Origin: a virus
Virus genome (UHGV): UHGV-0118082
DNA length: 23,476 bases
Reading direction: 5' to 3' (one strand)
The translations under genes and the position numbers were made by a program. Positions 15,356-18,828 of the stretch are shown here, piece after piece. Positions within the stretch are counted from its first letter, which is position 1. The number at the start of each line of letters is the position of its first letter. The notes under the pieces were generated by a model. The model saw only the letters and a program-made list of their open reading frames with translations. It was not told the DNA's origin and ran no database searches.

Positions 15356-15556
15356 ATGCAACACGAACTACAACCTGATTCACTGGTTGATTTGAAATTC
15401 ATCATGGCTGATACTGGCTTTGGTAAAACCTTCATCTATGACCGGATTAAGTCCGGCGACCTGCCAAAAGCCAAAGTTATCCACGGGCGAGCAAGATGGT
15501 TATATCGTGACCATTGTGAATTCAAAAATAAGCTCTTAAGCCGCGCCAATGGGTAA
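15356..15556 (+). CDS. AlpA/Xis-like small HTH protein (excisionase or regulator) upstream of integrase
   Basis: 66 aa; LKFIMADTGFGKTFIYDRIKSGDLPKAKVIHGRARWLYRDHCEF fits the AlpA/excisionase HTH pattern; GGAGA Shine-Dalgarno. Confidence 0.7.
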   Translation: MQHELQPDSLVDLKFIMADTGFGKTFIYDRIKSGDLPKAKVIHGRARWLYRDHCEFKNKLLSRANG

Positions 15557-15828
15557 AATAGCGGGTAAAATATTTTTCACATCTAAAAAACACCATTCCA
15601 ATCAATCCCCTGCCGCCTCAAGTAGATGTCTGCAGGGGACAATACCTTTTCATTTCATCACGTTTCAACACACTTCACCTCCCCCCTTAAAACCAGCAAA
15701 ATCAGGGCCTGTCGCCTTGAACATGGTTTCAGTTGATTTCATGACATTACATGATTCTGATGGTATCGTTGATGGTACTCACGGTTCGATAAACCGATAC
15801 CATCAACTGACAACAAAGATTACTCTCC
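15557..15828 (+). promoter_or_regulatory. Integrase leader with direct and inverted repeats; candidate Int arm-type sites/att region
   Basis: GGGTAAAATA direct repeat (15551-15560, 15563-15572); inverted repeat GATGGTATCG / CGATACCATC (15759-15768, 15795-15804) plus an extra GATGGTAC copy; hairpin CCCCTGC...GCAGGGG at ~15607-15638. The track ORF 15549-15842 is considered non-coding. Confidence 0.3.
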
Positions 15829-17100
15829 ATGGCACTAAATGAGCTATCACCCAAGAAAGTTGAAAACGCTAAACCCAAAGAAACAGACTACAAACTGACG
15901 GATGGGGGAAGCCTGTATCTTTTAGTTAAAAAGAACGGGACCAAGGCATGGCGAATGAACTACAGATTTAACGGCAAACAAGCTACGCTGGCTTTGGGCG
16001 TTTTCCCAGACGTTTCGCTGGCACTTGCCCGTAAGCGTAGAGATGAAGCAAGGCAACTTTTAGCCGACGGTGTTGATCCCAGAGTATCTAAAAAAGCAGC
16101 GCCAACAGAACCCGCCTCTGCTACATTCCAGACAATCGCTTTAGAGTGGCATAAAGGCTCTATAGGCCATCCCTCATGGAAAGAGATTACCCGCACTAAA
16201 ATTTTAAGAGAAATGGAAAATCATATTTTCCCATATATCGGAAATAAACCCATCGACTCATTAAAAACAAGTGACCTGTTGCCATTATTGGTGAGGATGA
16301 GTGATCAGGGAATTGGAGCAACAACAGGAAGAGTGAAAACTACTCTTGCAAGCGTTTTCCGGTACGCTATTCAGCGTGGAATTGTTGAATACAATCCTAC
16401 CCATGATCTAAGAGGAGCAATTTCCAGCCCCAAAATAAAGCATCGCCCTGCACTTCCGTTAGAACGATTACCCGAATTAATATCAAAAATTGATAGCTAT
16501 ACAGGGAGGCCGTTAACTAAGCTGGCAGTATTATTTTCTCTTCATACTTTTGTTCGCTCCAGTGAACTGAGACACGCAAGATGGGAGGAAATTAATTTTG
16601 AAAATGCAATGTGGACTATTCCTGCTCAAAGAAAAAGAATTGATGGGGTAAAATATTCAGAGCGTGGGGCAAAAATGGGCAGTATTCATTATGTTCCATT
16701 ATCTAATGAAGCTATTGATGTTCTCGAAGCTATTAAAAAAATAAGTGGTGAGTATGAACTTATTTTCCCCGGAGATAGTAACCCTTACAAACCAATGAGT
16801 GAGAACACAGTTAATAAGTCATTAAGAATTATGGGGTACGACACGCAGGTGGACATTTGCCTTCATGGATTTAGGGCAATGGCGTGCTCAGCCCTGACAG
16901 AATCAGGCTTATGGTCGAGGGATGCAGTAGAACGGCAAATGAGCCATCAAGAACGAAATGAAGTGCGAGCCGCTTATGTACACTTAGCTCAGCATATGCA
17001 TGAACGTCGTCGGATGATGCAATGGTGGTCTAATTATATTGAAGCTAACACTGATAGATATATTGCCCCCTATAAAATGAAAAAACTACGCGTTGTTTGA
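15829..17100 (+). CDS. int: Tyrosine integrase, P4-type (DUF4102-like N-terminal arm-binding domain)
   Basis: 423 aa; N-terminal LYLLVKKNGTKAWRMNYRFNGK and C-terminal PMSENTVNKSLRIMGY...HGFRAMACS...ERQMSHQERNEVRAAYVH closely parallel P4 Int as recalled. Confidence 0.95.
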   Translation: MALNELSPKKVENAKPKETDYKLTDGGSLYLLVKKNGTKAWRMNYRFNGKQATLALGVFPDVSLALARKRRDEARQLLADGVDPRVSKKAAPTEPASATFQTIALEWHKGSIGHPSWKEITRTKILREMENHIFPYIGNKPIDSLKTSDLLPLLVRMSDQGIGATTGRVKTTLASVFRYAIQRGIVEYNPTHDLRGAISSPKIKHRPALPLERLPELISKIDSYTGRPLTKLAVLFSLHTFVRSSELRHARWEEINFENAMWTIPAQRKRIDGVKYSERGAKMGSIHYVPLSNEAIDVLEAIKKISGEYELIFPGDSNPYKPMSENTVNKSLRIMGYDTQVDICLHGFRAMACSALTESGLWSRDAVERQMSHQERNEVRAAYVHLAQHMHERRRMMQWWSNYIEANTDRYIAPYKMKKLRVV

Positions 17101-17174
17101 AAATAAGAAAATGGCTAATAGTAGTAAAGTCTGCTATTCGCCCCATTTTACCATATGTGCATACAGGTGACGTG

Positions 17175-18149
17175 ATGAGCGATAATACACGATTAAATGT
17201 TTGGGAAAGGAATAGTATTCCTGTAATGGAATTTTGCTCCCTAAAACGAGCTGCTGAACTACTTAATTGCCAAATTGATGACCTTATCCATTTTGCTCAA
17301 ATTGGAATTATCGAATTTTGCTTAGAATTAAATGGTTTCGAAGCTGCGCTAATGATGATGCGTAAAGGTGGAGATTTTAAAGATTGGGAAAACATGTACC
17401 CACCCAGAGTATTAAACTATAGTAATAAATCTGCATTAAGCCATTTCATACCAAAAGCAAAATTCGATATTGATTATACAGAAGATAAGCCATTTTCACC
17501 TCCAAAACAAATATACCATTTAGAAAACAAACCAAATATAAAAAGCCCATTAATCTTACTTTCTGGATTGTGGTCTATATGTGTCATCAGCCCAACATCT
17601 TCATTATACAAAGAACTAAAGGTATATGGTAAAGCAAGGCTATTAGCACATGATATTTCTTTTAAAGAAGCTAATATGCCATTCACTAATGCTGCATTTG
17701 GCAGTGATGAGTGGGTAATATTAGCAATGTCCCCTTTCGAAGGCTTATCATCAATAGAGGGATTAGTATCTCCATCTAATAAAAATATTATTGGAAATAT
17801 AACACTGGATGATATCTATTTAACAAGATACCAAATAGAAAAATTAGATAACGGTGTTGGCAAAGAGCTACCCAGCTATGTGAATGGTGGTGTATCCAGC
17901 ATCGAAAGCATCCGAAGAGTGCATGGTAATGTTGAAGCATCAGCAACAAAAAGAGAGGCAGTGTACAAAGCAGCTATTTATTGGTTACTAAATGACCCAG
18001 CATCTTGCAATGGAAAACGAGGAAAACTGACTATTGACGCGTGGGCAGATAAAATCGTGGCAGAAAGAAACAATCCAAAAACAAAGGTTGAACTTGGAAA
18101 AGATAAGATAAAAGAATGTCTTAGCTCATCTAAAGCAGGAAGATTTTAA
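17175..18149 (+). CDS. Hypothetical cargo protein, AT-rich, with possible N-terminal HTH; function unknown
   Basis: ATG at 17175 with AGGTGA Shine-Dalgarno (track start 17097 is TTG overlapping int stop); 324 aa; N-terminus FCSLKRAAELLNCQIDDLIHFAQIGII looks helix-turn-helix-like; no catalytic motif recognised; clearly more AT-rich than int and primase flanks. Confidence 0.6.
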   Translation: MSDNTRLNVWERNSIPVMEFCSLKRAAELLNCQIDDLIHFAQIGIIEFCLELNGFEAALMMMRKGGDFKDWENMYPPRVLNYSNKSALSHFIPKAKFDIDYTEDKPFSPPKQIYHLENKPNIKSPLILLSGLWSICVISPTSSLYKELKVYGKARLLAHDISFKEANMPFTNAAFGSDEWVILAMSPFEGLSSIEGLVSPSNKNIIGNITLDDIYLTRYQIEKLDNGVGKELPSYVNGGVSSIESIRRVHGNVEASATKREAVYKAAIYWLLNDPASCNGKRGKLTIDAWADKIVAERNNPKTKVELGKDKIKECLSSSKAGRF

Positions 18150-18220
18150 GTGGTAATATTTTATACCATCATAAAAACAAAATAGTGGCACTGATAATTT
18201 AGCCCTAACCTTGCCATCAT

Positions 18221-18248
18221 CTGCCGTGTTCATTACATAACACGGCAG
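18221..18248 (+). promoter_or_regulatory. Perfect 10-bp inverted repeat immediately upstream of alpA, overlapping its ribosome-binding region
   Basis: CTGCCGTGTT-cattacat-AACACGGCAG; right arm ends 8 nt before the alpA ATG; loop carries the CATTACA motif repeated at 18702-18747. Confidence 0.45.
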
Positions 18249-18256
18249 GTAATTTC

Positions 18257-18466
18257 ATGACATTAAAAACTTACCCTATCACCGGGCATGCCCGCCCACG
18301 GGCTACTGCTGACTTTTTGCAAGTAAGCACAGTTACTCTCTGGCGCTGGGAAAAAAACAATCCTGAATTTCCAAAATCCACACGTATTTCAAAACGGGTA
18401 ACTGTTTACGATGCACAAGAAATTAGACAGTGGGTAAAAGCTCAATCCTCAGATGCTGATAAATAA
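18257..18466 (+). CDS. alpA: AlpA-family transcriptional regulator (P4 Vis-like)
   Basis: 69 aa; FLQVSTVTLWRWEKNNPEFPKSTRISKRVTVYDAQEIRQWV fits the AlpA HTH pattern. Confidence 0.8.
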   Translation: MTLKTYPITGHARPRATADFLQVSTVTLWRWEKNNPEFPKSTRISKRVTVYDAQEIRQWVKAQSSDADK

Positions 18467-18517
18467 TATGACGACCTTAGAAAAATGGGAAAGAAGAAAA
18501 TCTTCCCCATGTATTTA

Positions 18518-18697
18518 TCAGTTCTTTGGTTCGGAACCACGACTTTGTAGCTCTTTGCGGATAATGCGTTTGATCCAAGCAGCCAGTGATTCATCACCAT
18601 CCTGCTGCTGTGCTTCTTCCATTAACTCACGCAATTCAGGGTCAAGTCTGAACTGGAATGGTGGATTACCACGTCTTTCGTTCTTGTGTGTTGACAC
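18518..18697 (-). CDS. Small ribbon-helix-helix-like protein (59 aa), divergent from the satellite early operon
   Basis: GTG start at 18697 inside a palindrome; translation ...PPFQFRLDPELRELMEEAQQQDGDESLAAWIKRIIRKELQ has the beta-strand then helix pattern of RHH/Arc-type proteins; no ATG start, weak evidence. Confidence 0.4.
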   Translation of the reverse strand: MSTHKNERRGNPPFQFRLDPELRELMEEAQQQDGDESLAAWIKRIIRKELQSRGSEPKN

Positions 18698-18747
18698 GTC
18701 AATTACACCTATTGTAATGTGCTTATGTGTAATGACACATTACACAC
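18691..18747. promoter_or_regulatory. Divergent promoter/operator region with three dyad-symmetric elements
   Basis: TTGAC-ac-GTCAA (18691-18702); ATTACA-cctat-TGTAAT (18702-18718); TGTGTAATG-aca-CATTACACA (18727-18747). Confidence 0.5.
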
Positions 18748-18828
18748 AAGGAATCAAAATAGCAACGCCCCGGAGTGTTTGCGGCACTGCCGAGGCGTCT
18801 GACCAAAGCGTTAGATGAGGTAACGAAA

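Follow-up and report, generated by a model that had tools for sequence, protein, structure and literature searches.

A selectively maintained protein of a large unannotated family in the int–alpA slot of Enterobacterales phage satellites, a candidate for phage conflict

The phage satellite in UHGV virus genome UHGV-0118082 (23,476 nucleotides, called the window below) carries, between its integrase gene int and the AlpA-family regulator gene alpA, an open reading frame (ORF) of 324 aa whose product and family we call X. X is very probably a selectively maintained, three-domain member of a large unannotated family with a dedicated int-slot-alpA slot in the AlpA-type (P4-like or PICI-like; PICI, phage-inducible chromosomal island) satellites of Enterobacterales; it consists of old, deeply diverged alleles, fixed in position and orientation and exchanged between near-identical backbones. 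Our high confidence applies jointly to the whole of this descriptive account. X is also a good, if unproven, candidate for a protein of phage conflict. A large share of Enterobacterales genomes contain satellites of P4 or PICI type, elements whose accessory genes have already yielded new anti-phage systems. The element in the window is an Escherichia coli phage satellite, and near-identical DNA is found in E. coli chromosomes.

Results

The preliminary description of this region, drawn from the letters alone, had singled out the ORF at 17175–18149 as an accessory-type gene without an assignable function, and the ORF proved to be real: in identical elements RefSeq annotates precisely this reading frame, as the hypothetical protein WP_024235423.1, it is under purifying selection, and domain scans leave it unassigned (below). 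Translation starts at the ATG at 17175 and stops at 18147–18149; starting from an in-frame TTG at 17097 the product would have 350 aa, but this longer version overlaps the stop codon of int. Compared with orthologs of the same allele group (68–88% identity; Klebsiella michiganensis, Pantoea and metagenomes), X had a ratio of nonsynonymous to synonymous substitution rates (dN/dS) of 0.07–0.12, with synonymous sites saturated in these comparisons; values for int and alpA were 0.05 and 0.10–0.16, respectively. By domain, dN/dS of X was 0.05–0.10 at the N-terminus, 0.08–0.27 in the middle and 0.02–0.06 at the C-terminus; an outlying N-terminal value of 0.49 came from a near-identical pair with almost no substitutions. 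Because of its low dN/dS and its 419 family representatives, X is not a chance ORF. The ratios indicate that X is functional and suggest that its diversity is that of old alleles shuffled among backbones, not of decay.

A profile search of 1.84 billion representatives returned 419 proteins at E ≤ 1e-3 (130 at E ≤ 1e-10), each standing for a cluster at 50% identity and most of them 260–350 aa long. Matches often covered both ends of the protein, with a divergent middle. In relatives from Klebsiella, Enterobacter, Scandinavium, Pantoea and metagenomes, down to ∼20% identity, X always lay directly after an integrase with an Arm-DNA-bind_3 domain and, contig permitting, was followed by a same-strand AlpA gene, AntA/DUF4222/Ash, and a DUF927 or D5_N primase. 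The order int-X-alpA recurred at at least seven chromosomal sites, with integrases that were 23–100% identical. When the search was started from the integrase, an int at least 77% identical was found at 16 loci; X directly followed it in 15, and the sixteenth locus ends too soon. Five loci with more distant integrases had no X, and the X family fills the slot even beside integrases of only 23–40% identity.

Within this fixed position, X is extremely diverse. The commoner argW satellite has in its slot a 293-aa X homolog of 24% identity (E = 4e-18). Compared with the window, one such locus (L003; L-numbers denote the loci compared) is 24% identical in X, 88% in alpA and 98% in the primase, and in L024, where int is 96% and the primase 98% identical, X is recognizable over only ∼50 residues. 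Nucleotide similarity to related satellites (blastn) ends at 17048–17106 and restarts at 18219–18304. Since these breakpoints fall at the gene edges, the variable cassette consists of the X gene and ∼70 nt. At least 16 allele clusters (60% identity) were present among ∼50 loci, most of which have intact X ORFs; truncated copies were found in L025, L028 and L035. In a set of 5,426 complete E. coli genomes, 10 have the window allele, 66 the 293-aa allele and 5 a third one; a fourth, known from viral contigs, is absent from all of them. The identity of X does not follow that of int: integrases 77–80% identical accompany X proteins 24–32% identical, but an integrase of 25% identity accompanies an X of 42%. 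We also considered co-variation of the X C-terminal type with alpA or with the hairpin before it, and rejected it; the window and L003 share the hairpin and an 88% identical alpA, yet differ in X.

X is the AT-rich minimum of its region, as the preliminary description had noted. In 300-nt windows, G+C content (GC) was 0.32–0.40 across the X ORF, 0.37–0.48 across int and 0.51–0.64 from ∼18700 onwards; for the whole gene it was 0.35, with 0.42 in the upstream flank and 0.51 in the downstream flank. Comparison did not support the separate acquisition that had been read into this composition. GC of X was below that of both flanks at 31 of 31 distinct loci (mean 0.36 versus 0.48 and 0.50), which represent at least 16 allele clusters. 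Low GC is thus a standing trait of the X family and, being found at all 31 loci, is uninformative about recent acquisition of the copy in the window.

An AlphaFold model built from a 138-sequence alignment (pLDDT, the predicted local distance difference test, 91.1; pTM, the predicted template modeling score, 0.78) replaced one from 15 sequences (pLDDT 66.5). It comprises a winged helix (strand-helix-helix-hairpin, residues 20–59), a β-rich middle (∼89–226) and a helical C-terminus (251–318). The charge of the N-terminal domain is negative in 70% of family members, and the C-terminal domain is net basic in 82%. The C-terminal domain is near-identical among homologs of 33–47% overall identity, and differs in family members P0012–P0014 and in Klebsiella orphans described below. 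The N-terminal domain aligns in register with the neighboring AlpA over 44 columns, weakly (hhalign against local AlpA proteins, E = 0.0035, probability 9%). In a Foldseek search of the model against PDB and BFVD nothing was significant, which suggests that the whole protein, and by extension its middle domain, is without a confident relative in PDB.

Sequence searches were equally silent. Neither searches of Pfam, PADLOC, NCBIfam, PDB sequences and PDB profiles nor domain-by-domain scans at E up to 10 assigned X; its sole match was a weak one to PHROG 7144 (function unknown) over residues 18–112. Compared with Pfam, 138 family members gave no meaningful match, a single one meeting HTH_17 (HTH, helix-turn-helix) at E = 0.005, and X itself did not match the AlpA and excisionase hidden Markov models PF05930 and PF12728 at the gathering threshold. 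No catalytic motif or domain was found in X, and a literature search found no paper on the family or its protein accessions. Three candidate relatives were rejected. P4 cII (sce7726 family) gave an hhalign probability of 0.2%, a BLASTP E of 0.39 and no NCBIfam match; YfjH of K-12, encoded between intA and alpA of CP4-57, gave a BLASTP E of 0.54 and an hhalign probability of 1%, and yfjH is on the opposite strand; the Tai immunity proteins, set apart from X by position alone, sit next to pri in another satellite region. The absence of an assignable motif therefore stood: profile and structure searches gave no confident assignment of any kind, and so no confident non-defense one, and no housekeeping role for the element was demonstrated.

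We next consider whether X belongs to the core of the satellite. A query spanning alpA to DUF5375 found the related icd-to-DUF5375 module in 336 E. coli genomes, with alpA included in only 73. In 205 E. coli genomes a tRNA-Leu satellite has a primase 98% identical to that of the window, an int 46% identical and a different integration block. Its slot gene (L051 4323–4961) encodes an unannotated protein of 212 aa, WP_094964157.1, with a GC of 0.31 including the downstream spacer; this protein had no Pfam or PADLOC match, and its hhalign probability against X was 0.2%. WP_094964157.1 is a second uncharacterized candidate in the same int-alpA position. A further sibling, L052, has an int 40% identical and a slot gene of the X family. 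The L051 and L052 blocks thus indicate that int, slot gene, alpA and ylcI are exchanged as a unit and that the backbone works with unrelated slot genes; a satellite backbone with a 98% identical primase exists without X. The slot of argW-type modules always holds the X family, and the unrelated 212-aa gene appears only where the whole integration block differs. The int-alpA interval is therefore variable, as had been proposed, with X alleles 24% identical beside neighbors that are 88–98% identical and the 212-aa gene in the tRNA-Leu version, but it does not appear to be a place of freely swapped cargo. In a distant element (L043 3996–4736; int 41%), int is followed by a gene that fuses an AlpA domain to HNH and AP2 domains.

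X-like proteins also persist outside satellites. Three Klebsiella species (K. grimontii, K. spallanzanii and K. pneumoniae) have intact orphans (L010 7001–7774, L011 6992–7753 and L053 4992–5873) that lie about 0.5–1.1 kb downstream of tRNA-Arg(CCT); the int, alpA and primase genes of a satellite are absent from their surroundings. The orphans cover the N-terminal and middle domains and have a different C-terminus. Those of K. grimontii and K. spallanzanii are 79% identical, with a dN/dS of 0.08. Because the orphans are under purifying selection, an X-like protein is kept without the switch beside which X sits. From these comparisons we argue that X is accessory and autonomous.

The preliminary description had further taken the slot for a known site of cargo. 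In P4, with the gene order int, cII, beta, gop, cos, psu, the defense hotspot is the psu-int interval beside cos (Rousset et al. 2022, PMC9122126; PMC8628076; PMC13586616). The slot of X resembles it as satellite-borne, int-side variable DNA, and cII of P4, right after int, is the int-proximal gene of its interval. However, X is not homologous to cII, and psu and delta of the window come after the primase, so that the equivalent position is at the far end, after delta. Because psu and delta follow the primase and defense genes alternate after delta, the int-alpA interval is not the P4 hotspot. In PICIs, genes with accessory or immune roles are described in the interval from int to the regulator or else at the 5′ end of the island (PMC10085698; PMC11364771), and the int-proximal accessory position is established for them. 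The claim of a known cargo slot thus holds for the int-proximal accessory and immune region of PICIs and fails for the P4 defense hotspot. Like the genes of that PICI region, X lies between int and an AlpA-type regulator, is dispensable to the backbone, varies among relatives and is AT-rich; unlike them, it represents one uncharacterized family, with no known defense domain, that holds the slot across many integrase lineages in place of alternating systems.

Two groups of regulators also invite comparison. X shares with Stl of Staphylococcus aureus pathogenicity islands (SaPIs) and Rpr of PICIs the position adjacent to int, a predicted N-terminal domain of HTH type, extreme divergence, and a variable part that could recognize phage proteins. 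In contrast to those repressors, which are divergently transcribed, X is on the + strand with int and alpA; its winged helix is acidic, it has no sequence or fold match to Stl, and it is dispensable in siblings, with orphans that survive without a switch to control. With AlpA, Vis, TorI and Xis (HTH_17, MerR-like) X shares a predicted winged-helix N-terminal domain of excisionase/MerR type; unlike them, it has C, D/E and H in place of the S/T, T and R of the recognition helix, and is five times longer, with two extra domains.

The features of the region are collected in Table 1. In strain Evo1, the satellite reads int, X, alpA, the YlcI/Arc-like gene (opposite strand), an icd-like gene, two hypothetical genes, DUF5375, primase (890 aa, Toprim/DUF927), psu, delta and DUF4062. 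Its early region is PICI-like and psu and delta are P4-like, making it a satellite of mixed PICI/P4 character. The 59-aa regulator matches the Arc-like repressors of PHROG 228 (E = 4.9e-6) and YlcI_YnfO_N of NCBIfam (E = 5e-4). In Evo1, as in strains without a tandem prophage, 188 nt separate tRNA-Arg from the satellite int, and yfdC adjoins. In the window, the tRNA-Arg (argW) site (∼15356–15830; L001, L003) also contains a lambdoid prophage, which ends in torI (15356–15556) and adjoins the satellite in tandem on its left side; similarity to satellite-only strains starts at ∼15630. In such tandem argW arrays the TorI excisionase gene is 273 nt from the satellite int, so that two elements with excisionase-type regulators share one att region. 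At the other end, outside the window, mutually unrelated defense genes alternate after delta: DUF4062 in the element of the window (L001 21304–22269), a retron St85 effector (L051 12530 onwards) and Drt3a (L052 12285 onwards).

Several DNA features accompany int, X and alpA. The GC-rich hairpin immediately 5′ of alpA has the alpA Shine-Dalgarno sequence in its 3′ arm and a (C/G)ATTACA-like motif in its loop; L009, L014, L024, L027 and L029 have a hairpin at the same place with other arm sequences, one of them with a G·U pair. On int-X transcripts that read through into alpA, the hairpin could mask the ribosome-binding site of alpA; alternatively, it could serve as a palindromic operator. The motif ATTTCATGACATTA is exact in both copies in L002, L003 and L005, and present with at most one mismatch in both in L047 and L049; L024 and L048 have only the copy upstream of int, and L046 only that at alpA. 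It may be a putative binding site of a shared regulator or of Int/AlpA. A bidirectional terminator-like hairpin at 18485–18510 is common to alpA and the 59-aa gene, and a 13-nt palindrome at 18722–18750 with TGTAATG/CATTACA repeats marks a divergent promoter region between the 59-aa gene and the icd-like gene. Over the whole window CATTACA shows no significant enrichment, with 8 copies against 4.4 expected and 6 of 100 shuffles reaching 8. Just past the stop codon of unrelated X alleles lies the palindrome GAGTTTTC(A)AAAACTC (L012 6979, L013 4961, L024 6253, L026 2127), with looser versions in L008, L022 and L027 and none at the allele of the window; it is a candidate that could act as a weak terminator or a binding site. 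A 15-nt perfect inverted repeat inside X (17309–17323/17455–17469) was rejected as probably due to chance, not being conserved in the orthologs L046–L049.

Table 1. Coordinates of the features around int, X and alpA in the window
Feature	Position	Strand	Basis or remarks
14-nt motif ATTTCATGACATTA, copy 1, 80 nt upstream of the int start codon	15736..15749	+	repeat search
P4-type tyrosine integrase (int), 423 aa, first gene of the integration module	15829..17100	+	Pfam Arm-DNA-bind_3, Phage_int_M, Phage_integrase
Hypervariable cassette: X, 74-nt leader, ∼70 nt allele-specific 3′ spacer	17101..18218	+	blastn breakpoints
Shine-Dalgarno sequence AGGTGA of X	17165..17170	+	read from the sequence; 4 nt before the ATG at 17175
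X gene, 324 aa, uncharacterized family	17175..18149	+	ORF; WP_024235423.1; dN/dS; family representatives
X N-terminal domain, residues 1–62, excisionase/MerR-like winged helix	17175..17360	+	most conserved part; net charge −5
X middle β-rich domain, residues 63–245	17361..17909	+	variability near-saturated; GLW and DLxITRxxIEK motifs conserved
X C-terminal helical domain, residues 246–324	17910..18146	+	net charge +8; most constrained module (dN/dS 0.02–0.06); replaced in some homologs
Hairpin/inverted repeat CTGCCGTGTT-N8-AACACGGCAG, left edge of the conserved alpA module	18221..18249	+	sequence; similar hairpins at other loci
14-nt motif ATTTCATGACATTA, copy 2, spanning the alpA start codon	18252..18265	+	repeat search
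alpA, 69 aa, AlpA-family regulator/excisionase homolog	18257..18466	+	Pfam PF05930 (Phage_AlpA), E = 7.9e-7
59-aa Arc/YlcI-YnfO-like small regulator, convergent with alpA; its gene closes the exchangeable integration block	18518..18697	−	PHROG 228, NCBIfam

Discussion

Accessory genes next to int are a known feature of satellites. Not described in the literature searched are the X family itself and its domain architecture, the way in which its many ancient alleles monopolize a single slot, and the Klebsiella orphans. As to function, we suggest, with a probability of roughly 40%, that X is an autonomous protein that acts in the conflict between phage, bacterium and satellite through binding rather than catalysis. 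The quiescent satellite would produce X, probably from the int transcript itself or directly behind it, because + strand predictions show no terminator-like site either between int and X or between X and alpA. The N-terminal winged helix, together with the basic C-terminal helical domain in full-length forms, would engage a conserved partner, nucleic acid or protein, and the polymorphic β-rich middle would recognize a variable phage component, with the result that infecting phages would be excluded or interfered with.

Several observations weigh against such a role. Averaged dN/dS is purifying and not positive even in the middle domain, and no gene-wide positive selection is seen. Unlike typical defense genes, the X family is seen solely in the int-alpA slot or its remnants, which could equally mean an element-specific role. 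The 5,027 models of PADLOC-DB 2.0 gave no match to the X of the window at E up to 1, nor to the X proteins of L003, L008, L024, L029 and L052 at E up to 0.1. The N-terminal winged-helix domain has an acidic net charge (−5), and the AlpA recognition helix S/T-x-x-T-L-W-R-W (S-T-V-T-L-W-R-W) has become C-E-x-x-D-L-x-H-W in X. Finally, the orphans are without the conserved C-terminal module and may not do the job of the full-length protein.

The main rival reading makes X a helper-sensing regulator, a functional analog of SaPI Stl. Produced together with int in the quiescent satellite, X would then hold the alpA switch off until a helper protein, bound by the middle domain, released it, and allele diversity would be helper specificity; it could bind the conserved region upstream of alpA, or sequester AlpA or Int through its AlpA-like N-terminal domain. 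X sits immediately upstream of alpA and beside int, as stl sits beside int in SaPIs (PMC6092414), its family is confined to this slot, and its conserved termini enclose a hypervariable middle. A conserved hairpin or palindrome lies at alpA, the 14-nt motif is repeated there and upstream of int, and the N-terminal domain bears its weak in-register similarity to AlpA. The idea gains its appeal from the literature on Gram-negative PICIs, in which repressor and induction signal alike count as unknown: how helpers switch on alpA, and whether these islands have a repressor, are both stated to be so (PMC6092414). Nevertheless, we consider it unlikely. The orphans remain under purifying selection with neither alpA nor int, the slot gene is unrelated to X in a sibling whose replication genes are 98% identical, X and alpA are transcribed in the same direction and not divergently, the acidic winged helix is without the usual DNA-contact residues, and the type of C-terminus does not track the sequence of alpA or of the hairpin. 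A more specific version makes X the missing helper-phage sensor of Gram-negative AlpA-type satellites, a Stl-like anti-activator whose winged helix is AlpA-like but does not bind DNA, each allele setting which helpers induce the satellite; the orphans and the unrelated slot genes weigh against this as well, and it seems to us distinctly unlikely.

It is more doubtful again whether X serves the integration module, modulating site-specific recombination as, for example, an anti-excisionase or directionality modulator. It might in that way insulate the satellite from the excisionases of its neighbors at shared att sites, such as that of the TorI prophage in tandem, and excisionase cross-talk between co-resident elements has been documented (PMC11773190). 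X does belong to the block int-slot-alpA-ylcI, whose genes are exchanged together, its N-terminal domain is predicted to have the excisionase/MerR-type winged-helix fold, and the TorI gene is close to the satellite int in argW arrays. A cofactor role is nonetheless weakened because X does not co-diverge with int; orphans persist without an integrase, and P4, CP4-57 and the tRNA-Leu module have unrelated genes in this place. That X is AT-rich foreign cargo recently acquired by the element of the window would agree with its having the lowest GC of the region, with the rarity of its allele (10 of the 5,426 E. coli genomes) and with the break in DNA similarity to siblings exactly at its edges. Recent foreign capture is largely refuted, however, and has very little probability left: the same family fills the slot of all close relatives and of distant elements, low GC is universal in it, the window allele has diverged along with int and alpA in other genera, as seen in Klebsiella michiganensis and Pantoea, and the family was not found in a non-satellite context, remnants aside. 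Least credible of all is a decaying or non-functional ORF in an AT-rich spacer. Functional annotation is absent everywhere and a few copies are truncated (L025, L028, L035), but X has a confident fold supported by co-evolution and mostly intact ORFs at ∼50 loci, and its dN/dS appears sufficient to refute this reading.

The population structure of X is unusual, with many ancient alleles in one fixed slot, persistently low GC, and a stripped-down copy that Klebsiella species retained when the remainder of the satellite was lost. The int-slot-alpA unit is well defined and easily cloned, and it comes with natural controls (WP_024235423.1, WP_001164861.1 and WP_029884305.1, and the unrelated WP_094964157.1). 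If X regulates alpA, it would bear on how Gram-negative satellites sense their helpers (PMC6092414). Should X prove to be an immunity protein, it would work by recognition and not as an enzyme, and its allele series could map onto phage targets.

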